A stretch of 16,044 nucleotides of DNA from a virus (Duplodnaviria > Heunggongvirae > Uroviricota > Caudoviricetes), in IMG/VR virus record IMGVR_UViG_2718217897_000010, positions 1-16,044 of that record. One strand, 5' to 3'. Of this stretch, positions 1 to 16,044 are shown one piece after another; within the stretch, counting starts at the first letter, position 1, and each line of letters starts with the position of its first letter. Both the position numbers and the translations under genes were made by a program. The notes beneath the pieces are model-generated. The model was given only the letters and a program-made list of their open reading frames with translations, was not told the DNA's origin and ran no database searches.

Positions 1-642
1 TTATGTTTTTGCAATAGTTAAACCAGATCGTTTAATATACTCATCTAACGTGCCAGAGGTGTCATGTATTTTCGCAACATGATAATTGAGTAAGCTAATT
101 TCTTTAGTTTGTAATTTTGGTGGAGGAATATCCGCTCTACCGCCATCCACAGATACCAATAAAAACCTGTCTAGGAATGCTCCGTCGTAATAAAGCTCAT
201 ACCAATATCCAGTTGCTCTGGGATCTGGATAATTGTTAGCCCAATCTTCTATAAAATTTTCACATTGAATTCCTTCATCAATGAACTTGGCTCGAAAACG
301 AAGACGTGGGTCTTCTTTAAGGAATCGTTCGCTAGCCCATTCCCTTGAAATCCCATGCCAATCTTGAGATGGTTCAGTTTTGGGTATGAAATTTAAGATT
401 TCCTCATATGTCATATCTCTGACAGGTTTACGTTCTGGTAAAAAATATTCTGCTACCGATGGGCTGGCTAAGAACAATGAACTAAGCATTCCCAGAGCGA
501 ATGCGATAGGTTCTATATCAAATCCTGATATCCAAAAAAAAGCTGCTATCAAAGCGGCCCCGAAAAAAATCCCCCCCAATACTCTAAGGGGATGTTGATA
601 TTGTTTTATCCATAACCAGATTGGTGTTAACTTAATTTTCAT
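1..642 (-). CDS. hypothetical membrane protein (213 aa): two predicted N-terminal TM helices, then ~150-aa soluble domain
   Basis: Complete ORF with stop codon at 1-3 and ATG at 642. Hydrophobic stretches VLGGIFFGAALIAAFFWISGF and IAFALGMLSSLFLASPSV near the N-terminus. AT-rich coding sequence. No family recognised. Confidence 0.5.
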   Translation of the reverse strand: MKIKLTPIWLWIKQYQHPLRVLGGIFFGAALIAAFFWISGFDIEPIAFALGMLSSLFLASPSVAEYFLPERKPVRDMTYEEILNFIPKTEPSQDWHGISREWASERFLKEDPRLRFRAKFIDEGIQCENFIEDWANNYPDPRATGYWYELYYDGAFLDRFLLVSVDGGRADIPPPKLQTKEISLLNYHVAKIHDTSGTLDEYIKRSGLTIAKT

Positions 643-1153
643 CTGCCATTCCGATTTGTCTAACTTATTTAGAATTAAGAGGTTGAAATTAAGAATAGAT
701 AATCATACTCACTACGGGCTTTGAATTTTGATATTACAATTATTTCATTTTATTTTCAATTAATTATACGTTATTTATTGAACAAGTTTCCATGCCCTCA
801 GTTAACCAAAATGTCCGTTTCTAGCACACAGCAGCCCTATAGACAGTGGAGTAAAGTCATGGAGGATCGGTGGGAGGAGATGCAAATCCTCTCATACAAA
901 AAATACGTAAAATCTATAACAGCTGGAAATCATTCAATACTCGCACTATTGGAAGTTCACCAGCCAACCGCAGCACGTTCTTGCATACGACGTGCCTGCG
1001 GTTTCAACTCCCGCCAGCTCCACCAATCATGATTGGGTGGCGTAAGGATAATACCAACAAAAACAGCAAGTTATCAGTCCAAGCAGGACACCAACCAGAC
1101 GGTGAGGATACAAAAAAAGATACGCAAAGGAGCCGCGGTGCCCTAGTGACTTG

Positions 1154-1176
1154 AAAGCCCACAGATGTGGGCTTTT
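1154..1176 (+). terminator. putative rho-independent terminator (stem AAAGCCCAC / GTGGGCTTT, loop AGAT, followed by TTTTAT)
   Basis: Perfect 9-bp inverted repeat with GC core read directly from sequence; T-run on the plus strand. Not attached to any convincing upstream gene. Confidence 0.4.
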
Positions 1177-1368
1177 ATGGAATAAAGTACTTGAACCAAC
1201 AGCAAGAAATCAGTCTTGATGCTAAGTACTAGTGATGAAGCCACAACAACTGCTCTCATAAAAACGAAGACACTTATCGTGCCACCATCAAAATCTTTGT
1301 GAGTGTATCCATTTCTTTTTACTTGAACAGAGAAAACAATAATGCTGCTTATTTGCACAGTAAAATAA

Positions 1369-1388
1369 TACTGTATACAAACACAGTG
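1369..1388. promoter_or_regulatory. LexA (SOS) box-like operator TACTGTATACAAACACAGTG
   Basis: Matches the CTGT-N8-ACAG core and 16 of 20 positions of the E. coli LexA consensus TACTGTATATATATACAGTA. Overlaps plausible -35/-10 hexamers on both strands (plus strand TTGCAC-17-TACAAA). Confidence 0.5.
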
Positions 1389-1587
1389 TAGAGGAAGTTT
1401 TATGCATATTCCAACTAGCATGAATGTCTTTCTGTCATAAAATTAATGTCTGTTATAAGCAGTGAGCCCAACCGATGCATGCAGCACATAGCGAACCCAA
1501 ATTACAGCCTTTACAGCCACTATTGTTCACCATTAGACAGATGCGAACATTTTCCTGTATGAAGATATTTAGACTGCTTTTATTTGT

Positions 1588-2685
1588 CTAAAAATTCTCT
1601 CTCTTGTGCTGCATTTTACTCTTATTTTCAAGCATAAGAAACATTGCTGCATTTTGCTCCCAAGATATTTTAGATAAAAACATTTTTTTAGAAAATGATT
1701 GTTCCAATTCTCCCAAAAACGAATCAAGCCACCAATAATATTCCCATCCCTTAGTTGTTAATAAAGACTTGGCATTAAAATCCACTGTAACTACCAAACC
1801 TACTGAATAAATTGAAAATGAATTAAACTCTCTACCCAAATAAAGATTTCCAAATTTCATTGGTAGATTAGCCCCGAATCCCTCGAACACAGGGCGATAA
1901 TTAATCTTAAATCTTTTAGTAACAATACTTATACTAGAGTCGCTCTCTCTTGTGAGCGAACTACTTTTGGGAAGAACTATTTCAAAATGGTCAAAAATTG
2001 CGCCTCCATTGCCATATGCATATACAACTTTACCTATAGATGGTAAAGAACTATAATCCATAAATTGCTCACGTTCATCCATAGCTCTAGAAAAAGTATC
2101 AATAAATCTATTCCCCATAAGAACATCAGGAATACTTTTCCTATCTAGTTTAACCAAATAATCATCGGAAAAAGTTTCATCATCATTAAAATAGCTACTT
2201 AAATGAAGAGCAAGTTTTCTTAAAACATAATACTCAATCGCCTCAATAAATAGTGCATTTGCTTTCATTTTTTTGCTATTTATCCCCTTCCCTTTAAAAT
2301 CAAAAGCATAACCAATTGGCCCCTCAGTCCATGATTTATGAATAGCCTTATTTTCCGCGCATAATCCTTTTAGGTAACGGCTAACCTCTTCGGAAAAATC
2401 GTAGCCTTCAATTGATATCAACTCTTTTTTTTCATTGTCTAAACACACAACCCCCTCAAAATCATATTTCCCATTATTCATAGGATAGGCGTTACGCAGA
2501 AAGATTGTGGCACCTAAAATTATTAGTAGCGCACCAACAACAATCATTTTCAAAAATGACAAGTTAAAATAACCAACAACGCCTGATGACAGTATATTTA
2601 CGCCCAAGGCAATTAACACCGCAACAATGAACACTTCGAATATATTTGTTTTAACGGCTAGTAGATCTGCTATTTTTTTCTTCAT
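1588..2685 (-). CDS. hypothetical membrane-anchored protein (365 aa): two N-terminal TM helices plus ~300-aa soluble domain
   Basis: Long ORF in an AT-rich block. N-terminus MKKKIADLL followed by hydrophobic segments FIVAVLIALGVNILSSGVVGYF and MIVVGALLIILGATIFL. No recognisable catalytic motif. Confidence 0.6.
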   Translation of the reverse strand: MKKKIADLLAVKTNIFEVFIVAVLIALGVNILSSGVVGYFNLSFLKMIVVGALLIILGATIFLRNAYPMNNGKYDFEGVVCLDNEKKELISIEGYDFSEEVSRYLKGLCAENKAIHKSWTEGPIGYAFDFKGKGINSKKMKANALFIEAIEYYVLRKLALHLSSYFNDDETFSDDYLVKLDRKSIPDVLMGNRFIDTFSRAMDEREQFMDYSSLPSIGKVVYAYGNGGAIFDHFEIVLPKSSSLTRESDSSISIVTKRFKINYRPVFEGFGANLPMKFGNLYLGREFNSFSIYSVGLVVTVDFNAKSLLTTKGWEYYWWLDSFLGELEQSFSKKMFLSKISWEQNAAMFLMLENKSKMQHKRENF

Positions 2686-2739
2686 AGTGCACCCAATCCA
2701 ACTTATACTCTCATCATTAGCCTACGGCCAAACTCAAAT

Positions 2740-2757
2740 TTGCACTCTTATGTGCAA
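2740..2757. promoter_or_regulatory. inverted repeat TTGCAC-N6-GTGCAA in the upstream region of the 365-aa gene (possible operator)
   Basis: Palindromic hexamers read directly, 55-70 bp upstream of the ATG at 2685 (minus strand). Function is inferred only. Confidence 0.2.
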
Positions 2758-3085
2758 TTGGACCCTCAACACTACAACTTTTATATCTTTATTACAATGC
2801 ATTAAATATAGAGTAGTTAGCTAAGTGCAACGATAGGACAGAATTGTACCCGAAGCACAATATCTACAAACGGTTTAACATTAGTTGCAAGTGCGGACCA
2901 CTTTTTCTATCTGCCTATATTTTCAGGCTGCTGCTGGTCGGTAGTTTCTATGTATAGCCGCTTTCACCGTCAATGACGCATAAAGTCTATCTTTCCCTAC
3001 TTACTGATGAATCAGAACGCGACATTCCACTCATCCTCAGAATCCCTCAGAAGGTTCAATATAACGCCAAGCACCGAAGTTCCGC

Positions 3086-3424
3086 TTATGAGTGAACATG
3101 ATGAACAACTATATCTTGCCCTGTTCTATGGGGATACCAACCACAATAGTGGGACAAACCGCCATTAATTAACTCATGCTCTAAATCTTCGTCCACCAGC
3201 ACGACAAGATGCCGCATACTGCGCCCCAGTCGGTCCAGTTTCCAGACCACCAGCGTATCACCTGCCGATAATGTCCTGAGCAGTTTTTTCAGTCCAGGCC
3301 TTTCGGACTTTGTACCGCTTATCTTGTCTTCAAAAATCAGCTCGCATCCTGCACAGTTCAGCGCATTACGTTGTAGATCTGTGTTCTGGTCATTTGTTGA
3401 CACACGTACATAGCCAATAAGCAT
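3086..3424 (-). pseudogene. DNA invertase (serine recombinase, Hin/Gin/Pin family), 3'-truncated
   Basis: Translation from the ATG at 3424: MLIGYVRVSTNDQNTDLQRNAL...GDTLVVWKLDRLGRSM, the classic invertase N-terminus including the catalytic Ser in RVSTNDQ. The ORF stops after ~112 codons and the C-terminal HTH DNA-binding domain is missing in all frames. The track ORF start at 3460 adds 12 non-homologous residues. Confidence 0.75.
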
Positions 3425-3450
3425 GGTAGATCTCCCTGACAAAAGCAGGA

Positions 3451-3843
3451 ATGATGCCATTTGCTCGTTATTTCTGCATTTTCATAAACGTTGGTTTGGG
3501 AGAAGCGGCCAAATTGCCTGCGATTAGTGGCTCTTTATCATCATCTGGCTGGATAAAAATCCCTGTTATAGAGGGGAAGTCTTTTATTATCCAATGGGGA
3601 AGAATCGGACCTTCTGATAGTAAAACTGGTGTTGCAACAGGAAGTTATCCTATTGCTTTTCCAAATTCTGCATTTATGGCATTTATTGCTGAAAAAACCG
3701 CAGTATCCACAGGCCCAATAGGTATTAATTCCTGGGGAGTATCCGAACTAACAAAAACAGAATTAAAGGCCATTTGTGCTGCAAGGACTATATCAACTTC
3801 AGCCGCAACTGAAACAGGTGATTTTCTGGTACTGGGATATTGA
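3451..3843 (+). pseudogene. side tail fibre C-terminal (variable, receptor-binding) segment; lacks the 5' constant part
   Basis: Contains IIQWG and PIAFPN motifs typical of lambdoid/Mu-type tail-fibre C-termini. Begins at the crossover site. Its stop overlaps the start of the downstream tail-fibre assembly gene (ATGA). No upstream constant tail-fibre region is present on this strand. Confidence 0.6.
3479..3504. other. invertase crossover site-like 26-bp imperfect palindrome (hix/gix/pix-like)
   Basis: TTTTCATAAACG-TT-GGTTTGGGAGAA. The reverse complement TTCTCCCAAACCAACGTTTATGAAAA matches about 20 of 26 positions of hixL as I recall it (TTCTTGAAAACCAAGGTTTTTGATAA). It lies next to the invertase gene and inside the 5' end of the tail-fibre segment, as expected for such switches. 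Confidence 0.45.
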
Positions 3844-4313
3844 GCTTCCATAAGGATTATAAAATGTCGAGCATAATATACTACAGCTCTATAAATAATG
3901 CATTTTACCCTGAGCATTTGAAACAAGAATATATTAAATCTAATTCTTTTCCAGCAGATGCAAAACCCGTTAAATATTCTGTTTTCGAAGAATTTGCACT
4001 TAAACCAGCACCAGAAGGAAAATACAGGTGCGTTGGTGAAGATGGAATGCCATCATGGGCAGATATTCCACCACCAACACATGAGGAACAGATTGCCGCA
4101 GCCGAATTGAAAAAGCAGCAATTGATTAACCAGGTCAACGAATACATGAACAGTAAACAATGGCCCGGTAAAGCGGCTATTGGTCGTCTGAAAGGTGAGG
4201 AACTGGCGCAATATAATCTGTGGCTGGATTACCTGGACGCACTGGAAATGGTCGATACTTCCAGTGCTCCAGATATTGAATGGCCTACGCCTCCGGCAGT
4301 TCAGGCCAGATGA
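3840..4313 (+). CDS. tail fibre assembly protein (Tfa family)
   Basis: 157 aa. N-terminus YYSSINNAFYPEHLKQEY and C-terminus LWLDYLDALEMVDTSSAPDIEWP are typical of Tfa/gpU-type chaperones. Translationally coupled to the fibre segment upstream. Confidence 0.8.
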   Translation: MSFHKDYKMSSIIYYSSINNAFYPEHLKQEYIKSNSFPADAKPVKYSVFEEFALKPAPEGKYRCVGEDGMPSWADIPPPTHEEQIAAAELKKQQLINQVNEYMNSKQWPGKAAIGRLKGEELAQYNLWLDYLDALEMVDTSSAPDIEWPTPPAVQAR

Positions 4314-4722
4314 CATCTGGCGCGGTGCTGGTATCAGTTGCCGTCACCGCGTCAATGTAATCCAGCACAGCGTTAAGGCGGGTTGTTTCTGTCTGCGTCA
4401 GTTTACGTCCGGCCTGCAATTTCAGTTGAATCAGACTGATGGAAGCCATTGCTGCATCAATTAGTAACTGGCGCTGTGCTTCTGCCGCGTCTACTGCGGC
4501 ACTGTGTTGTGCCTCAGTGTCTGTCACCCATTTCTCACCATCCCATTTATCGTATGGCGTTAACGGTGAAAGCGTGACATAACCGTCTTTGATGGCACCG
4601 ATATAATCCACTGTAACAGCTGCGCCATTTTCGATTGAGTAAACAGTCTCATTGCGATGGTCTTCTTCATGGCTCCATCCCTTACCTGTAAATATTGGCA
4701 TGGGGTAAGATTTCCGGCTCAT
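4285..4722 (-). CDS. tail fibre assembly protein (Tfa family), second copy in opposite orientation
   Basis: 145 aa. C-terminus AVLDYIDAVTATDTSTAPDVIWPELPEA is the conserved Tfa motif. Converges on the plus-strand Tfa with a 29-bp 3' overlap, as in Mu G / e14 P invertible segments. Confidence 0.75.
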   Translation of the reverse strand: MSRKSYPMPIFTGKGWSHEEDHRNETVYSIENGAAVTVDYIGAIKDGYVTLSPLTPYDKWDGEKWVTDTEAQHSAAVDAAEAQRQLLIDAAMASISLIQLKLQAGRKLTQTETTRLNAVLDYIDAVTATDTSTAPDVIWPELPEA

Positions 4723-5222
4723 GATTCGTTAATTTTCAGAAACGGGTTAGTGGCTTTCTTCTGCCCCGCCAGGCCAATCAGACGCTGGCGGCTGCTGGGG
4801 TCGAGTCCGAGCATTGCCCCCGTGCTGCTCATCTCGGACTCCTGTTCTTTTTTGGCGGTCAGCTCCGGATTTTTGACCCTGCCGCCCATTGCACCGGTGA
4901 TGGTGTTGCCCTGTATGGCAATATTTTTCACGGCACGTCGCCAGAACTCATAGGCCACGCACCACCGCTCAAGTACCGCCAGGTCAGTCACGCACAGCAG
5001 ACCCTGACCGCAGAGTTCTTTGGTTGTCAGTTGCCACATGATCGTGGCGAGAGGGAGATCTTCTTCAGCGAACCACTCCGGTGGCTCAACACCTTTGATG
5101 GGCGTAAAAACAGGTTCATCTTTGTTCAGGGCTCGCTTGCCGGGGTTTCCGGCCAGCGCCTTGCGCGCCGTTGGCTTGGGGCGACGCCCGGAACGCCCCG
5201 CCGTTCCAGCCATATGCGGCAC
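4719..5222 (-). CDS. phage terminase small subunit (P27-family-like)
   Basis: 167 aa. N-terminus MAGTAGRSGRRPKPTARKALAGNPGKRALNKDEP is characteristic of P27-type TerS. Its stop overlaps the start of the Tfa gene (ATGA), so no large terminase or structural genes follow. Confidence 0.65.
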   Translation of the reverse strand: MPHMAGTAGRSGRRPKPTARKALAGNPGKRALNKDEPVFTPIKGVEPPEWFAEEDLPLATIMWQLTTKELCGQGLLCVTDLAVLERWCVAYEFWRRAVKNIAIQGNTITGAMGGRVKNPELTAKKEQESEMSSTGAMLGLDPSSRQRLIGLAGQKKATNPFLKINES

Positions 5223-5338
5223 TCCTGGTTAAATTTCATTTTTCGCGGGTATAAAAAAACGATGGGGCGGGCAGTCCGGAAGACGTCAGGCCGCAGGGAT
5301 TTGACCCGCCCCTCCCCTCAAGCAGTTGAGAATTATTA
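5223..5338. other. putative cos / packaging-initiation region between HNH and terS
   Basis: Intergenic, with GC-rich inverted repeat GGGGCGGG (5264-5271) ... CCCGCCCC (5305-5312). HNH-cos-terS is the usual order in HK97-like cos phages (from memory). Confidence 0.3.
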
Positions 5339-5689
5339 TCACTTCAACCGTTCACGGGCCGTCTTCGCCTTATGACACGGCCAGCACAGACTCTGCAGAT
5401 TACGGTCGGCATCAGTGCCGCCATGCGCTTTAGGAATGATGTGGTCAACGGTTTTCGCCTCGCGCACCACACCGGCACGCAAACACAACTGACACAGGCC
5501 TTTGTCACGCTTCAGCACACGCGCGCGGATAACGTCCCACTTCGAACCATAACCGCGCTGATGACGGGATTGTCCTGGCTTGTATTGCTTCCAGCCTTCG
5601 CCTTTGTGTTGCTTGCAATAACCTGACGGGTCTGTGGTTGTCGATCGGCAGCCGCGAACACGGCAGGCTTTTGGTGTTCGTGGTGGCAT
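5339..5689 (-). CDS. HNH endonuclease (phage packaging-associated)
   Basis: 116 aa. Cys pairs CRVRGC and CQLC, plus DHIIPKAHGG ... NLQSLCWPCH, make up an HNH/zinc-finger motif. Located immediately upstream of terS. Confidence 0.8.
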   Translation of the reverse strand: MPPRTPKACRVRGCRSTTTDPSGYCKQHKGEGWKQYKPGQSRHQRGYGSKWDVIRARVLKRDKGLCQLCLRAGVVREAKTVDHIIPKAHGGTDADRNLQSLCWPCHKAKTARERLK

Positions 5690-5764
5690 TGAAATATTCT
5701 CTCTGATACTGCTCGCACGATATGCATAAAAACCTCCAACAGGCGGTTTATGTGTAGACGTATC

Positions 5765-6676
5765 TCAGTACTTAAATAAGAATTTGCTATTACTTTGAAA
5801 TTGAGATGGTGTGGTTGCAATCGGACTAGATGTCGCAGCTATCTCTTCAAGTAACTCAGCTTTCCAGACATGCCCTAGTTGCAAAGATTCACTATGCGAC
5901 ACTTTGTATTCTGCAGCACTAACGACTTGTTCTAAGAAAAGATCACTGTTTAGCATTTGCATACTTGCATAAACGCCAAGGAAATGAATTTTCATTCCCA
6001 TATCCATGATCATATTCCCTTCTTTTGTAAGATAACCACTGTGCGTGACATAGAATGCCGGAGAGCCTGACATTCCAGGGAAAGCAGAAATATCGACAAC
6101 TATTAATTTCTTCCCATCGAAATCGATATCTGGCTCACTCGCTAAGCTTCCTGTTTTCCATATTGGAAGGTAGTGAGTCGTGTCATGATAACCATGAGGA
6201 TATCCAATCATTACAACAGGAGATGAGGGGTTTATCTGGACATTAGGCAGTGTCGTTGTTTTTGAGACTACTTTTACTCCTGTGTTTACAAACAACTCTT
6301 GAGGCAAAGGCATCAAGATAATGTCTGCCTCTTTATCTGTGGGGTGCTCCAACCACAGCGGTGAACCATCTTTAAACAGAGGCATCGTATGTTTGAATAG
6401 TTTTCCGGTTTTATCTCTCAGCTGAATATCAATACTATCGCCTATAAATGGCTTTACACCCCTTTCGGATGGGCTGATTCCAGTTATTACATGATAGTTA
6501 GTTGCAAGGAAAATGAAACCATTGCTATGTTGATAAAAGAACCCAGTACCTAACGACTTTGACTCTCCATTAGACCTCAAAATTACTAAAGTAGTTACCA
6601 GAGATAGCGGCTGTACGTTTTGCATAAAATTCATCCAACATGAACTTCGATATAGGTTGTAAAAGCATACAATCAT
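5765..6676 (-). CDS. trypsin-like (chymotrypsin-fold) serine protease, cytoplasmic; start codon uncertain
   Basis: Candidate catalytic triad in the canonical order: His in ATNYHVITG, Asp in EADIILMPL, Ser in GMSGSPAF (GDSGGP-like). No signal peptide. AT-rich. Alternative starts at internal Met15 or Met18 (MNFMQNV). Confidence 0.6.
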   Translation of the reverse strand: MIVCFYNLYRSSCWMNFMQNVQPLSLVTTLVILRSNGESKSLGTGFFYQHSNGFIFLATNYHVITGISPSERGVKPFIGDSIDIQLRDKTGKLFKHTMPLFKDGSPLWLEHPTDKEADIILMPLPQELFVNTGVKVVSKTTTLPNVQINPSSPVVMIGYPHGYHDTTHYLPIWKTGSLASEPDIDFDGKKLIVVDISAFPGMSGSPAFYVTHSGYLTKEGNMIMDMGMKIHFLGVYASMQMLNSDLFLEQVVSAAEYKVSHSESLQLGHVWKAELLEEIAATSSPIATTPSQFQSNSKFLFKY

Positions 6677-6742
6677 TCCAGAAAATTCTTAACCAACTAT
6701 TTCCAATATATGAATCGCCAATTCCGATCTAGCTATATAACC

Positions 6743-7015
6743 TCACTTTTCAGCAGAGTTTTTCTCCGAAAGCAGGTGCTCACTCTTTCTAATGTCTAAC
6801 TTATCCCTATTACAAGACGCCAGCGCCGACAACAGGCTTACGTTCAAATCCAGGCTCCCACTCCATGTCAGCGGGTCGGGGATAGCTGGTTGCGGAGTTT
6901 CAGCGGTCAGATTCGCTAGTAGTGGTACCGCCGAAACTGGTACGTAAACTGTCCGCGTACCGGCGCAGCCGTTCAGCTGCACGAGCAGGAACAGGACGGG
7001 CAGCGCAATCATCAT
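6743..7015 (-). CDS. Rz1-like o-spanin (outer-membrane lipoprotein), overlapping the 3' end of Rz in a different frame
   Basis: MMIALPVLFLLVQLNGC followed by a proline-rich mature region (VPVSAVP, TPQPAIPDP). Starts inside Rz and runs past its stop. Lipobox LNGC is non-ideal and the signal peptide lacks a basic residue; the start may instead be the in-frame ATG at 7081. Confidence 0.4.
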   Translation of the reverse strand: MMIALPVLFLLVQLNGCAGTRTVYVPVSAVPLLANLTAETPQPAIPDPLTWSGSLDLNVSLLSALASCNRDKLDIRKSEHLLSEKNSAEK

Positions 7016-7292
7016 TCGCAAAAGCCATTTTGATATCAGCCTGGGTTCTCTGTGACTCCAGTGCGATCTGCTGTTTTGCATGCTGGTTAGCCTCCAGTAC
7101 TGTATTGACGATTTGTAGTGATTGCAGGACGTTATTAGTAATGGCAGTTGCCGATTTGGCATTTTGTACAGCCTCATCAGCACGTTTCTTTTCGTGCTGA
7201 TATTTGCTGTAGTAGTGGTTGGTTGACCAGATGAAAGAACAGACGACAGTTAAAAGGAAAGCAGCGATAATCAGCTTATAGCTCAACTTCAT
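6900..7292 (-). CDS. Rz-like i-spanin
   Basis: 130 aa with one N-terminal TM helix (LIIAAFLLTVVCSFIW) and a charged, probably coiled-coil periplasmic domain. Immediately downstream of the endolysin and overlapping it. Confidence 0.55.
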   Translation of the reverse strand: MKLSYKLIIAAFLLTVVCSFIWSTNHYYSKYQHEKKRADEAVQNAKSATAITNNVLQSLQIVNTVLEANQHAKQQIALESQRTQADIKMAFANDDCAARPVPARAAERLRRYADSLRTSFGGTTTSESDR

Positions 7293-7752
7293 TTACCACC
7301 CCACCAGCCTCTTTAAACCTGGCAATCAGGTCACCGATTTTATGTTCATACTGACCATAACCAGCGCCCGGCAGTGAAGCCCAGATATTGCTGCAACGGT
7401 CGATTGCCTGACGGATATCACCGCGATCAATCATCGGTAAAGCGCCACGCTCTTTAATCTGCTGTAATGCCACGGAGTCCTGGCTTCTGGGAGAGAAGTC
7501 TTTCAGCCCTAGCTGCTTGCGGTAGGCATCCCACCAACGGGAAAGAAGCTGGTAACGTCCGGCTGCTGTTGATTTGAGTTTCGGGTTTAGCGTGACAAGT
7601 TTGCGAGGATGATCGGAGTAATCAGTAAACAGTTCACCACCGACAATGACATCATAACCGTGGTTACGTGTCGGTTGTCGCCCGTTATCCGTTCCTTCTG
7701 ACCATGCAACCATATCCAAGAAAGCTTTACGCTGGGAATTTAGTGCCTGCAT
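7276..7752 (-). CDS. R: endolysin, lambda R-like lytic transglycosylase
   Basis: 158 aa. NSQRKAFLDMVAWSEGTDNGRQPTRNHGYDVIVGGELFTDYSDHPRKLVTLNPKLKS ... is near-identical along its length to lambda R as I recall it, including the catalytic Glu in WSEGT. Confidence 0.9.
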   Translation of the reverse strand: MQALNSQRKAFLDMVAWSEGTDNGRQPTRNHGYDVIVGGELFTDYSDHPRKLVTLNPKLKSTAAGRYQLLSRWWDAYRKQLGLKDFSPRSQDSVALQQIKERGALPMIDRGDIRQAIDRCSNIWASLPGAGYGQYEHKIGDLIARFKEAGGVVNEVEL

Positions 7753-7755
7753 AAA

Positions 7756-8082
7756 TTACTCCTTCGAGCTACCAAATTTGTTACCGATTACTCGCATTGC
7801 AGCCCCACGAATTGCATCGACACCAATCAGCCCAACACCGCCACCAATGGCAACAGAAAGAGATTTAGGCCATCCGACATACTCAAGAGCGGATGCAAAA
7901 GTCAGCGTCAGAGCACCACAGAGCAAAATCTCGAGCGTTTTTCGTTTCCAGCCACCACCACCGCCAAAATAGGCAATGCGCAAGCCAGCCATAACGATCG
8001 ACATAATCACTGCGCCCAGCGGTGTGTCTCCACGCCACCAGCTCTGGAACAACTCCAGCCAGGTATTTGGGTTATGAGGCAT
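7756..8082 (-). CDS. holin (class I, three TM segments, lambda S-like size)
   Basis: 108 aa with three hydrophobic segments and a charged C-terminus (NKFGSSKE). Sits directly upstream of the endolysin with 3-bp spacing. Confidence 0.7.
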   Translation of the reverse strand: MPHNPNTWLELFQSWWRGDTPLGAVIMSIVMAGLRIAYFGGGGGWKRKTLEILLCGALTLTFASALEYVGWPKSLSVAIGGGVGLIGVDAIRGAAMRVIGNKFGSSKE

Positions 8083-8234
8083 TTGTAGTTATCTCTCACC
8101 TCGCTGATACAGCAGGTGCAAATTGAGGGAACATCATGTACAGCAAATTAGAAGCGGAAACGTCAAAGAAGCCGAACCAATGGATAACTGCGGAATAGAC
8201 CAGGACCAACGAATCCCCAGCCCCAGAAACGACA

Positions 8235-8256
8235 AAACCCGCTCGACGGCGGGTTT
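8235..8256 (-). terminator. putative intrinsic terminator on the minus strand upstream of the holin (tR'-like position)
   Basis: Hairpin AAACCCGC-TCGACG-GCGGGTTT. On the minus strand the GC stem is followed by TTTTGTCGTTTCT. Confidence 0.35.
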
Positions 8257-8367
8257 AAGCTGTGTGGCGAAGTAACCACTCTTAACACGATACAATAATT
8301 TTTGCGTACGCGTTAGCGTTTTTGTAAGATTAACAAATAAATCGAAAAATCATAATCGGATGATTTC

Positions 8368-9390
8368 ATGGCAAAATTAAATGCTAGCGAAAGACTCGTT
8401 ACTCATCATAGTCTGACCATTGACACAAAGTTTAGAACCAAGGCAACACAAGAGGTAAAAGCCCAGTGTATATGTCCTGTTCCGGAAATGTACATGCTTG
8501 CCCCATTGATTGTTAAACAAAAGGGACTCGTTCATTCATATGATTCTGGGAATATTGTAGTTACTCTCCAAGATGTACAACTTTATCCTTTACTTCCAGA
8601 TAACTCACCCACGCATATTGTCCTTCTTATTAATAGTGTTGATAAAAATGGAAGTACTACCGTTGTAAAAAATATAAATACTAATGAACGCGTTGAAATC
8701 CAACCAAAATATGAACAAGGTGAAGGCTATGAAGTTTCTACCTATGTTGTCATATCATTAAATGGAAATAAAAGAACCTATGATATGATTTGTACATCTA
8801 CCCCAGGTGTATCTACGGCCCGGTTAAATAGTTTTTTAGACAAAATTCTCTTTGAAGTGGCGAAAGACAATGAAGACTTATTTACCGCAAAACATCCAAC
8901 TAACGTTATTTCTGCAACATCAAAAAAAGAAGTAAAAATACGATACAAACCAATATTTGAATTTACAGGAATGTTAGACAAGGAGCTTTTTAATAAAATA
9001 AGCCAAAAAGGATTATCAGATGTCATATTAGTCAAGGATCAATTCGGAACAATTAATGCTCCTGATGTTAACTCACCTTACATTCCGACTGAAAGTACAT
9101 TAAAATTACTTCCAAATCATGGTGACAATGTTATTGGATGGATTAAAAATGTAGCATCTCATTTCAATAAAAAAATGAATGGTGGTTATGATAAATTAAA
9201 GGTTAAATTCCAAGATCCTGAAACAAATAAACCAAGGCAGGTTGATTTCAAAACCTCAAACATCAATCTTAATAATTTAGAAAAAACATTTATTAAGAAA
9301 AGCATTATCGATAACTTTAATTCGCGCCTGAAGGATTCATATGTTAAAATTGAGCTAGAGTTTGTTGTGAAAATGATAGATTTGATGTGA
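8368..9390 (+). CDS. hypothetical soluble protein (340 aa), first gene of an AT-rich two-gene cargo operon
   Basis: ORF with ATG at 8368. Strongly AT-rich, Asn/Lys/Ser/Thr-rich, no TM segment, no recognisable NTPase, nuclease or NTase motif. 7-bp gap to the downstream gene, which has its own SD (GTGAGG). Confidence 0.6.
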   Translation: MAKLNASERLVTHHSLTIDTKFRTKATQEVKAQCICPVPEMYMLAPLIVKQKGLVHSYDSGNIVVTLQDVQLYPLLPDNSPTHIVLLINSVDKNGSTTVVKNINTNERVEIQPKYEQGEGYEVSTYVVISLNGNKRTYDMICTSTPGVSTARLNSFLDKILFEVAKDNEDLFTAKHPTNVISATSKKEVKIRYKPIFEFTGMLDKELFNKISQKGLSDVILVKDQFGTINAPDVNSPYIPTESTLKLLPNHGDNVIGWIKNVASHFNKKMNGGYDKLKVKFQDPETNKPRQVDFKTSNINLNNLEKTFIKKSIIDNFNSRLKDSYVKIELEFVVKMIDLM

Positions 9391-9397
9391 GGTTATT

Positions 9398-9982
9398 ATG
9401 CCAATACTTTCAGTTTTCTCTCATCTAGGCAAGCCGTTTGGATATCTTTTTATTAAAGGTATTAGCGGCAAAGCTGCATATGATTGGGTAGCGCCAATTC
9501 TACTTACTTCTATCACAGCAGTACTTTTCATTCTATTAAAAATCCCTGTCAAAGATTTATTTGATGACAATGGTTTCATTAAATCAATCGTTTCATTTAT
9601 CTCTAACCTACCAGGGTTTTATATTGCCGCTCTGGCCGCCATAGCAACTTTCAATAGAGCTGAGATTGATTTACCATTGATTAGCAATGAAAGAAATGCC
9701 TCTATTGAAATAAAAGTAACAAAAGAAAATGGAAAAGTAGTAAATTCAGAGGAGGTTCTGACCAGACGATTATTTCTTTGCATGCTATTCTCTTTTTTAA
9801 CAGCATTAAGCATTGTTATAATAATACTTAATGCTATATTTTCACCATTAATCAATGTCTATCAAAACAGTTTTGTTTTAATGGTTTATACTGTTGTATT
9901 TACTTTCCTCGTTTGGCAACTCTTAGTATCAACTTTCTTTGGATTATATTATCTCGGAAACAGAATTCATATGAATTATTAA
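9398..9982 (+). CDS. hypothetical integral membrane protein (194 aa, four predicted TM helices)
   Basis: Hydrophobic segments at about residues 30-49, 64-85, 125-148 and 159-186, with a ~40-residue charged loop between TM2 and TM3. Coupled to the upstream 340-aa gene. Confidence 0.6.
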   Translation: MPILSVFSHLGKPFGYLFIKGISGKAAYDWVAPILLTSITAVLFILLKIPVKDLFDDNGFIKSIVSFISNLPGFYIAALAAIATFNRAEIDLPLISNERNASIEIKVTKENGKVVNSEEVLTRRLFLCMLFSFLTALSIVIIILNAIFSPLINVYQNSFVLMVYTVVFTFLVWQLLVSTFFGLYYLGNRIHMNY

Positions 9983-10002
9983 GCCCTACAGGGGCTTAAT
10001 AA
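9976..10002. repeat. 11-bp perfect inverted repeat TTATTAAGCCC-TACAG-GGGCTTAATAA spanning the stop codons of two convergent genes
   Basis: Read directly. The left arm contains the TAA stop of the 194-aa gene (9980-9982) and the spacer/right arm contains the TAG stop of the Q-like gene (9986-9988). Confidence 0.6.
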
Positions 10003-10378
10003 TCAACAAAATACCTTCAATCACTCCTATTGCTGCTTGAAGTTGTTTTCTGATTGACCCGTCAGAGCATTTCCGTTTCTTTGCTATTGAACGGAGTGAA
10101 ATACCGATAACAAAGTGAGCAATGATCAGTTCATATTCTTCTGGCTTATATTTCCGCATTCGCGCAACACAGCTGTCAATCATGATTCCTTCATCATCAT
10201 CGCATTGTTGGCGTGTTTTCTTTCCATGAGGTAGTAAACCTTTAAACCCTGCAGCAACAGGCTGCCAGTCCACACCACTGTTAACCGCGGGAAAATTTCC
10301 GAAGAAGACACCACCGAAACGCCGATGTATGTCAATCGCGGTGGTCGCCTGACTATTCTGCAGGAAGACCAGGGACAA
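9986..10378 (-). CDS. Q-like late antiterminator (phage 21/QuuD-type); non-ATG (TTG) start, possibly defective
   Basis: 130 aa containing AAGFKGL, CDDDEGIMIDSCVARM and CSDGSIRKQLQAAIGVIEGIL, which resemble phage-21-type Q proteins as I recall them. The ORF begins with TTG directly after an in-frame TAA; the first internal ATG is at codon ~66. Confidence 0.5.
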   Translation of the reverse strand: MSLVFLQNSQATTAIDIHRRFGGVFFGNFPAVNSGVDWQPVAAGFKGLLPHGKKTRQQCDDDEGIMIDSCVARMRKYKPEEYELIIAHFVIGISLRSIAKKRKCSDGSIRKQLQAAIGVIEGILLIIKPL

Positions 10379-10497
10379 TTACTGACTCTTGCCGGTGAGC
10401 CTGACGGAAAATTACGCGCAGCAGGTCATTAATATCGTTCTTAATTAACTGATTATTTATCTCATCACTGAATATCTTTATATAGTGAGGACTTATT

Positions 10498-11322
10498 ATG
10501 TCTCAGAACTTAGACGCAACCGCAATTAATCAAATCCATGCCCTTATTTCTGCTCAGGGTGTTAATGAAATTATCAGTAAGATTGGTGCCGATGCTGTGG
10601 CATTGCCTGAGAATTTCCGCATTCATGATCTGGAAAAATTTAATTTAAATCGCTTCCGTTTCCGTGGTGCGCTTTCCACTGCCAGCATCGATGACTTTAC
10701 CCGTTATTCTAAAGATCTTGCAGATGAAGGCACCCGCTGCTTTATCGATGCTGATAATATGCGTGCCGTCAGTGTACTTAACCTGGGTACTATTGATGAA
10801 CCAGGTCACGCAGATAACACCGCCACTCTCAAACTGAAAAAGACAGCACCGTTCTCTGCCCTGTTGTCTGTTAACGGCGAGCGTAACTCCCAGAAGTCAC
10901 TGGCAGAATGGATCGAAGACTGGGCCGACTACCTTGTGGGCTTTGATGCTAATGGTGATGCCATTCAGGCAACAAAAGCGGCTGCGGCAGTCCGTAAAAT
11001 CACGATTGAAGCAAACCAGACCGCTGATTTTGAAGACAATGACTTCAGCGGCAAACGCTCCCTGATGGAGTCTGTCGAAGCGAAGACCAAAGATATTATG
11101 CCTGTGGCATTTGAATTTAAATGCGTTCCGTTTGAAGGCCTGAAAGAACGTCCGTTTAAATTACGCCTCAGCATTATCACTGGCGATCGTCCTGTACTGG
11201 TTCTGCGCATTATTCAGCTGGAAGCAGTGCAGGAAGAAATGGCTAACGAATTTCGTGATCTGCTTGTTGAGAAATTCAAGGACAGCAAAGTAGAAACCTT
11301 TATTGGTACTTTCACCGCCTGA
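10498..11322 (+). CDS. DUF2303 / YfdQ-like prophage early-region protein
   Basis: 274 aa with good SD (GTGAGGA). Sequence resembles the CPS-53 prophage YfdQ family (from memory). Confidence 0.7.
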
Positions 11323-11334
11323 TTTCATTACTGC

Positions 11335-11356
11335 AAATGCCCCTGCGGGGGCATTT
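11335..11356 (+). terminator. putative terminator hairpin AAATGCCCC-TGCG-GGGGCATTT after the YfdQ-like gene
   Basis: 9-bp perfect inverted repeat 13 bp past the stop. The T-run is short and partly inside the stem, so strength is uncertain. Confidence 0.35.
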
Positions 11357-11449
11357 ATGGAAACGTAATTGACTCAATAATCGCCGGATGGTGAGGGCTT
11401 CCTTTTACCAGAATTCAGCGCGGTGCAGCGCATATACGTGGAGAACAAA

Positions 11450-11986
11450 ATGTCATTTATTAAAACTTTTTCCGGGAAGCATTTTTATTATGACAGGATA
11501 AATAAAGACGACATCGTTATTAACGATATCGCGGTTTCTCTTTCAAATATCTGTCGCTTTGCAGGGCATCTTTCACATTTCTACAGCGTTGCCCAACATG
11601 CGGTGCTTTGCAGCCAACTGGTACCGCAGGAATTTGCTTTTGAAGCGTTAATGCATGATGCAACAGAAGCGTATTGCCAGGACATCCCGGCGCCACTGAA
11701 ACGCCTTCTTCCTGACTATAAACGGATGGAAGAAAAAATAGATGCAGTAATCCGTGAGAAATACGAGTTGCCCCCGGTTATGAGCACGCCTGTGAAATAT
11801 GCCGATCTAATCATGCTGGCAACCGAACGCCGTGATCTCGGGCTTGATGATGGCTCTTTATGGCCTGTACTGGAAGGTATCCCGGCAACAGAGATGTTCA
11901 AAGTTATTCCACTGGCACCGGGCCATGCCTACGGGATGTTTATGGAACGCTTCAACGAGTTATCGGAATTACGCAAATGTGCATAA
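11450..11986 (+). CDS. HD-domain metal-dependent phosphohydrolase (YfdR-like 5'-deoxynucleotidase family)
   Basis: 178 aa from the ATG at 11450, preceded by GGAGA. Contains the HD motif in ALMHDATEAY. The track ORF start at 11423 is GTG and adds 9 residues. Confidence 0.75.
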   Translation: MSFIKTFSGKHFYYDRINKDDIVINDIAVSLSNICRFAGHLSHFYSVAQHAVLCSQLVPQEFAFEALMHDATEAYCQDIPAPLKRLLPDYKRMEEKIDAVIREKYELPPVMSTPVKYADLIMLATERRDLGLDDGSLWPVLEGIPATEMFKVIPLAPGHAYGMFMERFNELSELRKCA

Positions 11987-12855
11987 CTCATGTAGTTAGT
12001 TTTTCTGGCGGGAGAACATCCGCATATCTTGTTCACCTGATGGAAGAACAAAGAAAGGCTGGCAATAACGTCTGCTACATCTTTATGGATACCGGTTGCG
12101 AACATCCGCTGACATACCGCTTTATCCGGGAGGTTGTGAAGTTCTGGGACATACCACTAACTGTGTTACAGGTCGATATAAATCCTGAGCTTGGGCAGCC
12201 AAATGGTTATACAGAATGGGAGCCAAAGGATATTCAGACACGAATGCCGGTGCTTAAACCGTTTATGGACATGGTTAAAAAGTACGGCACGCCATACATC
12301 GGCGGCGCGTTCTGTACTGATAGGCTAAAACTCATCCCTTTCACGAAATACTGCGATAACCATTTCGGGCGAGGTAATTACATCACATGGCTGGGTATTC
12401 GTGCAGACGAACCCCGTAGGCTGAAACCGAAATCGGGCGTCCGGTATCTTGCCGAGCTGTCAGATTTTGATAAGTCGGATGTTATCCGGTGGTGGCGAAA
12501 ACAACCTTTTGATTTGCAAATCCCGGAGCATCTCGGGAACTGTGTTTTCTGCATCAAAAAGTCAACGCAAAAGCTGGGGCTTGCATGTAAAGACGAACCA
12601 GGTCTGATGCGAGTTTTTAATGAGCTGGTTACAGGCAAACACGTCAGGGATGGTCATCGCAGAACAGGTAAAGACATTATGTACCGTGGTCACCTGACGC
12701 TTGACGGAATTGCCAGAATGTCTGCCAACAGCGACTACAGAAATTTGTATCAGGCGATGGTACAGGCCAGGCGATTCGATACCGGCTCGTGTTCAGAGTC
12801 ATGTGAAATCTGGGGTGATCAATTGGAATTGGAATTCAAAGAGGTAGGGGTATGA
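11977..12855 (+). CDS. PAPS-reductase-like (PP-loop ATP pyrophosphatase superfamily) protein
   Basis: PP-loop motif SFSGGRTS near the N-terminus. Start MCITHVVSFSGG at 11977 overlaps the upstream stop. C-terminal cysteines (CVFC, CSESC). Confidence 0.7.
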   Translation: MCITHVVSFSGGRTSAYLVHLMEEQRKAGNNVCYIFMDTGCEHPLTYRFIREVVKFWDIPLTVLQVDINPELGQPNGYTEWEPKDIQTRMPVLKPFMDMVKKYGTPYIGGAFCTDRLKLIPFTKYCDNHFGRGNYITWLGIRADEPRRLKPKSGVRYLAELSDFDKSDVIRWWRKQPFDLQIPEHLGNCVFCIKKSTQKLGLACKDEPGLMRVFNELVTGKHVRDGHRRTGKDIMYRGHLTLDGIARMSANSDYRNLYQAMVQARRFDTGSCSESCEIWGDQLELEFKEVGV

Positions 12856-13196
12856 CAACCGAAATTAACTACCATGCACTGCTTGAGCGCGCACGGAATA
12901 AAGTGCAGAGCATTGAGTTCGCCTTAACACAGAGTGCATTCGCTGAGATTCGCGCTGAGCTTGAAAATGATTTAGAACTGGCACGGATTGCACTGGCATC
13001 TCTGGAAGTTGAGCCAGATGAACGCGCAGCCTATGAATTATTTATGGAAAAGCGTTTCGGTAAAACAGTCGATCGTCGGAGAGCAAAAAACGGCGATAAC
13101 GAATACATGGCATGGGATATGACTCTCGGTTGGATCGTCTGGCAGCAACGAGCTGGTATCCATTTTTCAACAATGTCACAGCAAGAGGTGAAATAA
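12852..13196 (+). CDS. hypothetical early-region protein (114 aa)
   Basis: Translationally coupled on both sides: ATGA overlap with the upstream gene and TAATG overlap with xis. Confidence 0.55.
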   Translation: MTTEINYHALLERARNKVQSIEFALTQSAFAEIRAELENDLELARIALASLEVEPDERAAYELFMEKRFGKTVDRRRAKNGDNEYMAWDMTLGWIVWQQRAGIHFSTMSQQEVK

Positions 13197-13546
13197 TGGA
13201 GCCATACAGCCTCACACTCGATGAGGCCTGTCATTTTCTCAAGATATCCAGACCGACTGCCATTAACTGGATACGCACAGGGCGTCTTCAGGCAACACGC
13301 AAAGATCCCACTAAGAATAAATCTCCTTACCTCACAACACGACAAGCCTGCATTGCGGCTCTTCAGTCTCCGCTGCATACTGTCCAGGTGAGCGCGGGTG
13401 ATGGCATAACAGAGGAAAGAAAATGTCACTCTTCCGCAGAGGTGAAATATGGTACGCCAGTTTCACATTGCCGAACGGTAAAAGATTTAAACAGTCTCTT
13501 GGAACAAAGGACAAAAGGCAGGCGACAGAACTCCATGACAAGCTAA
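13196..13546 (+). CDS. xis: excisionase (P22 Xis-like)
   Basis: [38 protein letters not shown] is an HTH excisionase N-terminus. About 116 aa, overlapping the 5' end of int in another frame, as in P22. Confidence 0.7.
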
Positions 13547-14586
13547 AGGCTGAAGCATGGCGGGTCAGCAAACTTGGTGAAATACCTGATATAACGTTCG
13601 AGGAAGCGTGTGTCAGGTGGCTTGAAGAGAAAGCACATAAAAAATCACTGGACGATGACAAAAGCCGGATCGGATTCTGGCTTCAACATTTCGCAGGAAT
13701 GCAACTAAGAGACATTACTGAATCAAAAATTTATTCAGCAATGCAGAAAATGACGAACCGGCGTCATGAGGAAAACTGGAAACTCAGGGCAGAAGCATGC
13801 AGAAAAAAAGGGAAACCTGTTCCAGAATACACGCCAAAACCAGCGTCCGTTGCAACGAAGGCTACGCATCTTTCATTTATAAAGGCCCTACTAAGAGCCG
13901 CAGAGCGTGAATGGAAAATGCTGGATAAGGCACCAATTATTAAAGTGCCTCAACCAAAGAATAAACGGATCCGCTGGCTGGAGCCCCATGAAGCACAAAG
14001 GCTGATTGATGAATGTCCGGAGCCATTAAAGTCTGTTGTTGAATTTGCACTGGCAACAGGCTTAAGACGCTCGAACATCATCAACCTTGAATGGCAACAA
14101 ATAGACATGCAGCGCCGGGTGGCATGGATAAACCCGGAAGAGAGTAAATCAAACCGCGCAATTGGCGTTGCGCTGAATGATACTGCATGTCGCGTATTGA
14201 AAAAACAAATCGGGAATCATCACCGTTGGGTATTTGTGTACAAGGAAAGCTGTACCAAACCAGACGGAACGAAAGCGCCAACGGTCAGGAAGATGCGGTA
14301 TGACGCAAACACAGCCTGGAAAGCGGCGCTGAGACGGGCTGGTATTGATGATTTCAGATTTCACGACTTGAGACACACCTGGGCAAGCTGGCTGGTTCAA
14401 GCCGGAGTCCCGTTGTCAGTGTTACAGGAAATGGGAGGCTGGGAGTCTATCGAAATGGTTCGTCGATATGCTCACCTTGCACCTAATCACCTTACCGAAC
14501 ACGCACGGCAAATAGACTCGATCCTGAACCCATCGGTCCCAAATTTGTCCCAGTCAAAAAATAAGGAAGGTACTAATGATGTGTAA
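13423..14586 (+). CDS. int: tyrosine site-specific integrase (P22 Int-like, 387 aa)
   Basis: N-terminus [49 protein letters not shown]-terminal catalytic region [39 protein letters not shown] carries the conserved H-x-x-R and Tyr. Ends 14 bp from the tRNA 3' end. Confidence 0.9.
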
Positions 14587-14600
14587 CTTATTGATTTAAA

Positions 14601-14676
14601 TGGTGCCGATAATAGGAGTCGAACCTACGACCTTCGCATTACGAATGCGCTGCTCTACCAACTGAGCTATATCGGC
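14601..14676 (-). tRNA. thrW: tRNA-Thr (anticodon CGU)
   Basis: The reverse complement folds as a canonical cloverleaf: acceptor stem GCCGATA/TATCGGC, anticodon loop TTCGTAA, T-arm GGTTCGACTCC, 3' CCA encoded. Confidence 0.95.
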
Positions 14677-14790
14677 CCTGAAAGGACATGTTCACGAACG
14701 TGAATCACGGTGGACAAGGTTAAAACTAACCGGGCGATGCGTCAATGGCCTTGTGAATCAAATGGCTACTTTTGCATCACCCGGTTTTAT

Positions 14791-16044
14791 TTACGCACGA
14801 ATGGTGTAATCACCAATGCCGATCCACTTGTAAGTGGTCAGTGCTTCCAGCCCCATTGGGCCACGTGCGTGCAGTTTTTGTGTGCTTACCGCCACTTCCG
14901 CACCCAGTCCAAACTGGCCGCCGTCGGTAAAACGCGTAGAGGCGTTAACGTAAACAGCGGACGAATCCACTTCGTTAACAAAACGCTGGGCGTTGCGCAT
15001 ATCGCGGGTCAGGATCGCATCGGAGTGTTGCGTGCCGTGTTCACGAATATGGGCGATGGCATCGTCAAGATCGCTGACGATTTTGACGTTCAAATCTAAT
15101 GACAGAAACTCATCGTCATACTCTTCGGCTTTAACCGCCACCACCTTCGCGGGGCCTGCCTGCAACTGTGTCAGCGCAGCTGCATCTGCGTGTAATGTCA
15201 CGCCGCTTTCCGCCATTTGTTTGCTTAATACGGGCAGGAAGCTATCGGCGATGTTTTTATTCACCAGCAACGTTTCTACCGTATTACATGTGCTCGGACG
15301 CTGAGTTTTGGCGTTGACGATCACTTTTAATGCTTCAGCGATCTCTGCACTTTCATCAACGTAAATATGGCATACGCCTATACCACCTGTGATCACCGGG
15401 ATCGTCGACTGTTCGCGGCACAGTTTATGCAAACCAGCGCCACCACGCGGGATCAGCATGTCGATGTATTTATCCATACGCAGCATTTCACTGACCAGCG
15501 CACGGTCAGGATTATCAATCGCCTGCACGGCACCCGCCGGTAAGCCGCAGGATTTCAGGGCGTCCTGAATCACCGCCACCGTTGCAGCGTTAGTGCGACA
15601 CGTTTCTTTGCCACCGCGCAGGATCACCGCATTACCGGTTTTCAGGCACAGCGAAGCGACATCAACCGTCACGTTCGGGCGCGCTTCATAAATCACGCCA
15701 ATAACCCCCAGCGGTACGCGACGACGCTCAAGACGCAGGCCGCTGTCCAGTACGCCGCCATCGATTACCTGCCCCACCGGATCGGCGAGGTTGCACACCT
15801 GACGTACATCGTCGGCAATGCCTTTCAGCCGTGCGGGCGTCAGTGCCAGACGGTCAAGCATCGCTTCGCTAAGGCCATTGGCTCGCGCGTCAGCAACATC
15901 CTGGGCGTTAGCGTTGAGGATGATTTCGCTTTGTGCTTCCAGTTCATCGGCGATTTTTTCCAGCACGCGATTTTTTTCGCGGCTGGAGAGTTGCGCTAAT
16001 TTATACGAGGCTTGCTTCGCGGCAATGCCCATTTGTTCCAGCAT
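14791..16044 (-). CDS. proA: gamma-glutamyl phosphate reductase
   Basis: 417-aa [41 protein letters not shown] ... matches E. coli ProA along its full length (from memory). The ATG is at the window edge (16042-16044). Confidence 0.95.

Follow-up and report, generated by a model that had tools for sequence, protein, structure and literature searches.

A probable RexAB-type (PDC-M53) phage-exclusion pair carried as cargo between Q and holin in an SfII-like prophage remnant at thrW

RexABpp (PP_5643/PP_5644), encoded by prophage P1 of Pseudomonas putida, has been described as a RexAB-type anti-phage system (Rosendahl et al., Sci Rep, January 2026; PMC12894663). Its protection requires both genes, and deletion of either one sensitises the host to foreign phages. 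RexApp binds DNA and, when overexpressed, causes growth arrest and dye permeability that depend on RexBpp and need no phage, while RexBpp is a four-transmembrane (TM) protein reported to be without detectable homologues; the two-gene rexABpp construct proved unclonable, as its leaky expression is toxic to E. coli (PMC12894663). Here we analyse two adjacent genes, A and B, in a stretch of 16,044 nucleotides (nt) from a Caudoviricetes record (IMG/VR IMGVR_UViG_2718217897_000010, positions 1 to 16,044; hereafter the window), which holds a prophage remnant adjoining proA and a tRNA-Thr gene (thrW). An earlier note on this DNA had proposed the pair as a candidate for an undescribed anti-phage or superinfection-exclusion system resembling RexA/RexB or Kiwa. 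We consider it probable that the pair is a RexAB-type phage-exclusion module of the PDC-M53 family, carried as cargo in the slot between the antiterminator Q and the holin of an SfII-like remnant at thrW.

When searched against PADLOC-DB v2, protein A matched the PDC-M53A model PDLC04696 (2.1e-32, residues 7-340) as well as four more PDC-M53A models, and protein B matched the PDC-M53B model PDLC04699 over its full length (2.8e-54). PDC-M53 is a phage defence candidate (PDC) of this 2023 database, in which PDC entries are guilt-by-association predictions without an assigned function. RexApp and RexBpp match the same two families (8e-157 for PDC-M53A and 3e-72 for PDC-M53B). The P. putida pair was identified as IMG/VR locus L061, whose source names P. 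putida KT2440 and the accessions AMM02978.1 and AMM02979.1; of the seven RexBpp positions with published mutants, six have the stated residue in its B protein, its A protein with a His6 tag would weigh 37.47 kDa (published value, 37.5 kDa), and upstream of the pair there are a CI-like repressor and two small genes, as on the published RexABpp map. Window B and RexBpp share 37% identity (BLASTP, E 1e-32). Moreover, RexBpp residues W25 (where a premature stop arose) and S145 and Y181 (where substitutions abolish function) align to W30, S158 and Y185 of window B, of which W30 is nearly invariant and Y185 invariant in the family. Judged by these matches, the window pair and RexABpp are one family, PDC-M53.

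A literature search that covered PDC-M53, the RefSeq and GenBank accessions of both proteins and other reports of RexAB-type systems returned only the P. putida paper as relevant; no paper found by it names PDC-M53, PADLOC is absent from the RexABpp paper, and the equivalence of PDC-M53 and RexABpp appears to be new to the literature. The system itself can no longer be called undescribed: it has been a PADLOC candidate since 2023, and January 2026 brought the validation of its family in P. putida. By its sequence, the window pair is an E. coli/Shigella copy of a known defence type and not a new system.

The two proteins had also been thought to carry no known domain. For Pfam and NCBIfam this stands, as neither search found a domain in window A or B, but it does not stand for PADLOC or for PHROGs, where the pair falls in phrog_9879 and phrog_8257, both families of unknown function. 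The absence of a Pfam domain should not be taken to mean that a pair is undescribed, since a defence-candidate database already covered this one. Family-wide scans gave a similar picture: among 125 A-family members Pfam yielded no match at E <= 1e-3 and scattered matches that were all under the curated cut-offs, and among 45 B-family members there were scattered weak matches and none above a curated cut-off. RexA and RexB were not among the Pfam families listed for these members. Window A, itself one of the 125, matches their profile with an E of 2e-84, and profile searching extends its relatives to 485 representatives (E <= 1e-3), most of them ~20% identical. B has 682 relatives at cluster level, and its family has the invariant motifs LPGFYIAALAAIATF, TRR and GLYYLG. 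We also note that P0236, a protein of 5,191 amino acids (aa) in the representative library, contains 24 separate stretches that match positions 12-106 of the A profile (E 3e-18). This could be a giant protein made of repeated units like the beta-rich N-terminal part of A, or else a composition artefact.

Loci of the family were collected by scanning IMG/VR with B and adding loci from GenBank phages and genomes, for a sum of 90 B genes. At 89 of the 90 loci the open reading frame (ORF) immediately ahead of B, and on its strand, belongs to the A family and ends 3-48 nt, or in one instance 124 nt, before B; the lone exception is truncated by a contig edge. In 97.5% of the locus-pair comparisons A had diverged more than B, and the divergences of the two are correlated (r = 0.94), so that the pair is inherited as one obligately linked unit. 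The more rapid change in A is in keeping with a sensor under selection that is joined to a conserved effector, B.

The contexts in which the pair is found are varied. The slot between Q and holin of enterobacterial lambdoid prophages accounts for 8 of 46 non-redundant loci. The commonest neighbour families are Peptidase_S24 and HTH_3, and a CI-like repressor combining helix-turn-helix (HTH) and S24 domains lies immediately upstream on the same strand at no fewer than six diverged loci (at least six); L061 is a seventh CI-associated locus, with its two small genes between repressor and pair. The lambda cI-rexA-rexB arrangement has the layout of the family loci with an upstream CI-like repressor. 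Elsewhere the pair is found between the early genes and the holin of Salmonella phage F1055, next to the integrase of a Vibrio Vinavirales element, in Moraxella phage Mcat23, beside an Eco29kI restriction-modification system in a P2-like prophage hotspot of Halomonas, and in a P4-like satellite of Chromobacterium. Conservation of the two genes as a unit across unrelated settings had been named as a check on the proposal, and this is what the loci display. At the two Chromobacterium loci, a 507-518-aa Ion_trans_2 (potassium-channel) protein is encoded directly downstream of the pair (L006, 8596-10149; L007, 4231-5754), followed by a 267-aa protein without matches; the former may be another membrane-acting cargo gene of the same hotspot.

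The top structural neighbour of the A model is lambda RexA (8TWQ; 148 residues aligned, listed value 7.9), followed by E. coli RdgC (7.6), CHL4 (7.2) and CENP-N (7.1), with IML3 in eighth place (6.1), and this set of neighbours is the one published for lambda RexA (PMC11077077). The modelled fold of A is therefore described here as RexA/RdgC-like and of a DNA-binding type. The AlphaFold model of B (predicted local distance difference test score, 89) has four long TM helices, in agreement with its hydropathy profile and with what had been read from the sequence earlier; TM2 is the most conserved segment, and the loop between TM2 and TM3 contains a beta-hairpin at residues 102-120. The earlier likening of the pair to RexA/RexB is borne out by the predicted fold of A and by RexABpp, a family member established by experiment as a RexAB-type defence (PMC12894663). 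In BFVD, B reaches its highest TM-score, 0.41/0.47 and not significant (E 3.6), with A0A0A7RXT6; this 165-aa protein comes from mycobacteriophage Sbash, for which a Rex-like gp30/gp31 system has been described.

From the RexABpp homologue and from lambda Rex we infer how the window copy might exclude phages. A would be a DNA-binding dimer that senses a state associated with infection and activates an oligomeric B in the inner membrane. B would then damage the integrity of that membrane and the infected cell would stop growing, such that a superinfecting phage could not finish its cycle and the infection would be aborted. The ratio of A to B would probably be important, and the tight coupling of the two genes fits the sensitivity to this ratio that has been reported for lambda Rex and RexABpp. 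The DNA binding of A and the B-dependent membrane damage are putative activities, supported by the modelled fold of A, its isoelectric point (pI) of 8.9 and the conservation of W30, S158 and Y185.

The setting of the pair is summarised in Table 1. The reading of two coupled plus-strand genes between Q and holin, transcribed against the late genes, was confirmed in each part: the genes are separated by a gap of 7 nt, both flanking genes are on the minus strand, and past the holin the late lysis cassette continues with lysozyme and then Rz. Because the Shine-Dalgarno sequence of B overlaps the stop codon of A, translational coupling is suggested. The A and B proteins are 100% identical to orf50 and orf49 of Shigella phage SfII (KC736978), both annotated as hypothetical, and positions 8100-10100 of the window match the chromosome of E. 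coli H1827/12 at 100%.

Table 1. Positions of the gene pair, its flanks and other features of the window
Feature	Position	Strand	Description
ORF, 213 aa	1-642	-	GC 0.38; hydrophobic N-terminus
ORF, 365 aa	1588-2685	-	GC 0.33; hydrophobic N-terminus
thrW prophage	3086-14586		Heavily deleted
S1 peptidase	5765-6676	-	303 aa, trypsin-like; Pfam Trypsin_2, 3.7e-08; between Rz and HNH endonuclease
Lambda-family holin	7756-8082	-	PF05106, 6.6e-25; first gene of late lysis cassette; divergent from A
Holin-A intergenic region	8083-8367		Holds a minus-strand tR'-like terminator at 8256-8235
Gene A	8368-9390	+	ORF, 340 aa, soluble, pI 8.9; PDC-M53A family; putative DNA-binding sensor/activator
Shine-Dalgarno of B	9389-9392	+	GAGG; overlaps TGA stop of A; 5 nt ahead of ATG of B
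Gene B	9398-9982	+	ORF, 194 aa, inner-membrane, four TM helices; PDC-M53B family; putative membrane-damaging effector
Inverted repeat at B/Q junction	9979-9999		Perfect 8 bp, TTAAGCCC-tacag-GGGCTTAA, 5-nt loop; read from sequence
Antiterminator Q	9986-10378	-	PF06530, 1.3e-33, and RefSeq annotation; convergent with B
tRNA-Thr gene thrW	14601-14676

The pair is markedly AT-rich: its GC content is 0.323, while the window as a whole has 0.441, Q has 0.448 and the lysis genes have 0.499. The backbone stretch 8100-8336 next to it is kept in ~2,600 E. coli genomes, whereas the pair itself is present in just 9 of 5,426. This low GC content and the combination of a common flank with a rare pair indicate that A and B were put into a conserved backbone slot, and separate acquisition from the phage backbone, as had been proposed, is supported. 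A second E. coli allele of the pair, with ~58-64% aa identity to that of the window, occupies the same slot in 15 of the 5,426 genomes. Two alleles in one slot with one flank point to allelic replacement at a hotspot. In one example of the second allele, NZ_CP035498, the flank is at 3809043-3809270 and the allele at 3809325-3810921; both alleles share the conserved PR'/tR' flank and the Q side.

At the other end of the pair, B and Q have only 3 nt between their stop codons, and both codons lie within the inverted repeat. The B stop (9980-9982) is in the left arm of the hairpin, and the Q stop (9986-9988, minus strand) closes the stem with its first base and has its remaining two in the loop. 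There is no T-run after the hairpin on either strand, and the terminator scan made no call there; it is possibly an RNA-end hairpin of the convergent junction. Transcripts of A-B and of Q would collide at this junction.

The prophage at thrW has lost its repressor, immunity and replication genes and most of its structural genes. Beside int/xis it has yfdQ/yfdR-like genes, a gene like that of PAPS (phosphoadenosine phosphosulfate) reductase and a yfdP fragment, and then directly Q; beyond the small terminase subunit there are just tail-fibre-assembly fragments and a truncated pinE. To judge from this gene content, the candidate defence cargo has outlasted its phage. The S1 peptidase matches the PADLOC single-gene candidate PDC-S45 (5.8e-42) and phrog_7688, and SfII has IS911 and a different hypothetical gene at its position; we regard it as a second candidate cargo gene of the remnant. 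Past the tail-fibre and pinE fragments there are two AT-rich ORFs of 365 and 213 aa, neither with a Pfam, PHROG or NCBIfam match, and the latter with a weak match to PADLOC PDC-S50 (8e-4); these may be further cargo.

Several observations weigh against a RexAB-type exclusion module in the window. Support at the level of phenotype comes from the P. putida member of the family and not from the enterobacterial ones. Window A is only ~17% identical to RexApp with a marginal pairwise BLAST match (E 0.026), such that the link between them is one at profile level. For RexBpp, no membrane depolarisation was seen, and no interaction between RexApp and RexBpp was found by two-hybrid assay (PMC12894663), and for these reasons the ion-channel model of lambda may not transfer. 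A further activity of lambda RexA concerns the lysis-lysogeny switch of its own phage (PMC11077077). Neither the PDB nor BFVD yielded a significant structural neighbour for B, and scanning the plus strand upstream of A revealed no sigma-70 promoter above the shuffled background, the best weak candidate being TTAACA-15 nt-CATAAT at 8330-8356. Finally, no significant sequence similarity to lambda Rex was detected: hhalign gave a probability of 0.15-0.3% for RexA and the A family and ~1% for RexB and the B family, and RexB scored 0.4 bits in hmmsearch, inside the range of shuffled sequences.

These Rex comparisons were made with profiles against single sequences and against small alignments (lambda, Hafnia yong1, Salmonella MS2 LVA and IMG/VR relatives). 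Deeper RexA and RexB profiles could not be had from IMG/VR and GenBank phages, which offered close relatives only (>= 61% identity). The reported HHpred match of RexApp to RexA, at 98% (PMC12894663), was not reproduced here with the shallow RexA alignment, and in PADLOC lambda RexA and RexB match their own models only, the RexA model being matched by lambda RexA alone. By eye, RexB and B share the collinear motifs IAxLxAxxTF in TM2, TRRL before TM3 and a C-terminal FxLYxL, which do not rise above shuffled controls; since shuffled RexB outscores the real protein with the hidden Markov model of the B family (up to 8.4 bits, as compared with 0.4), we do not claim these motifs as evidence.

The pair might instead chiefly serve the life cycle of the phage that carries it, with exclusion as a by-product. 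Lambda provides precedents, in that RexB is an inhibitor of proteolysis by ClpXP/ClpAP and RexA makes the lytic state of the CI/Cro switch more stable. An own-life-cycle role has been raised for lambda RexA and its homologues (PMC11077077), many family pairs directly follow a CI-like repressor, and in the enterobacterial clade, where the pair is convergent with Q and the hairpin extends across both stops, an antisense interplay with Q is conceivable. However, the spread of the pair over P4-like satellites, P2 hotspots by restriction-modification genes and a Vinavirales element leaves no common switch to modulate, the window copy persists in a remnant without repressor or replication genes, and deletion of either P. 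putida gene sensitises the host to foreign phages; we think it unlikely that this is the chief role. The toxicity of leaky rexABpp expression in E. coli, and of RexBpp once triggered by RexApp alone without phage, would also be expected of an addiction-like module that stabilises the prophage, with B as toxin and A as its regulator or activator and no specific sensing of phage. That such a module is at hand seems quite unlikely, given that phage-specific protection in P. putida needs both genes, that strict co-transmission with a fast-evolving A fits sensing better, and that neither A nor B matches a toxin-antitoxin family of PADLOC or Pfam.

The roles of the two proteins could also be reversed, with B as a membrane sensor that tethers A, and A as the effector that binds DNA and keeps the phage from replicating. 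Kiwa has a comparable composition, a four-TM protein plus a soluble partner of DNA-binding type, and the effector of the Rex-like system of mycobacteriophage Butters is the soluble protein; we nevertheless hold this arrangement to be very unlikely. Highly improbable, in our view, is an accessory role in the timing of lysis, in which a holin- or antiholin-like membrane protein would act with a cytoplasmic regulator. It is suggested by the position at S-R-Rz, next to the holin, and by the small, multi-TM B protein, but the pair is transcribed opposite to the late operon, B matches no holin family, most family members are far from lysis genes and A has a predicted DNA-binding fold.

Beyond RexAB-type exclusion by the window pair, a broader proposal can be formulated, which we put forward as doubtful. 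PDC-M53 would be widespread and the principal kind of Rex-type immunity in Proteobacteria, combining a sensor of RexA/RdgC fold with an effector that is unrelated to RexB and permeabilises the membrane without depolarising it, and in the enterobacterial clade the module would be coupled to the lytic switch by antisense transcription at the Q junction. In IMG/VR there are 99 PDC-M53 loci as compared with 9 of lambda-type RexB. If the proposal is true, antisense coupling at the Q junction would silence the module upon induction of its own phage.

With the assignment to PDC-M53, two hypothetical genes of SfII and of ~24 complete E. coli genomes gain a name and a mechanism hypothesis, and through the link to RexABpp what was one Pseudomonas case becomes a family of hundreds of diverged members, one that spans lambdoid, P2-like, P4-like and tectivirus-like elements. 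The E. coli/Shigella member is a tractable model and could help to answer what a RexA-type sensor detects and how its membrane partner stops infection, a question that is 70 years old. The pair is of value because its host is tractable and because it ties a candidate from a database to a system that has been validated, and not as a categorical novelty.

Among known systems, lambda Rex resembles the pair in having a soluble protein followed by a four-TM inner-membrane protein, in the place of RexA as the top structural neighbour of A and in the many family pairs that directly follow cI-like repressors. The proteins differ in size, A having 340 aa and RexA 279, B 194 aa and RexB 144, and between TM2 and TM3 B contains an additional loop, ~35 residues long, in which its beta-hairpin lies. 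Kiwa likewise is membrane-associated and consists of a four-TM protein and a DNA-binding partner that is soluble, but KwaB is Rossmann-like with DUF4868, and families, folds and gene order are all different; with no match of A or B to KwaA or KwaB in Pfam or PADLOC and no support from the folds, the comparison with Kiwa made in the earlier note was rejected. SfII encodes the identical proteins in the same slot between Q and holin, and is a complete phage, whereas the window holds a remnant without immunity, replication or structural genes. RexABpp is likewise prophage cargo, with both proteins in PDC-M53A and PDC-M53B and with A and then B tightly coupled; it lies downstream of a CI-like repressor in P. 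putida, whereas the window pair lies in the Q-holin slot, antisense to the late genes, in E. coli/Shigella.

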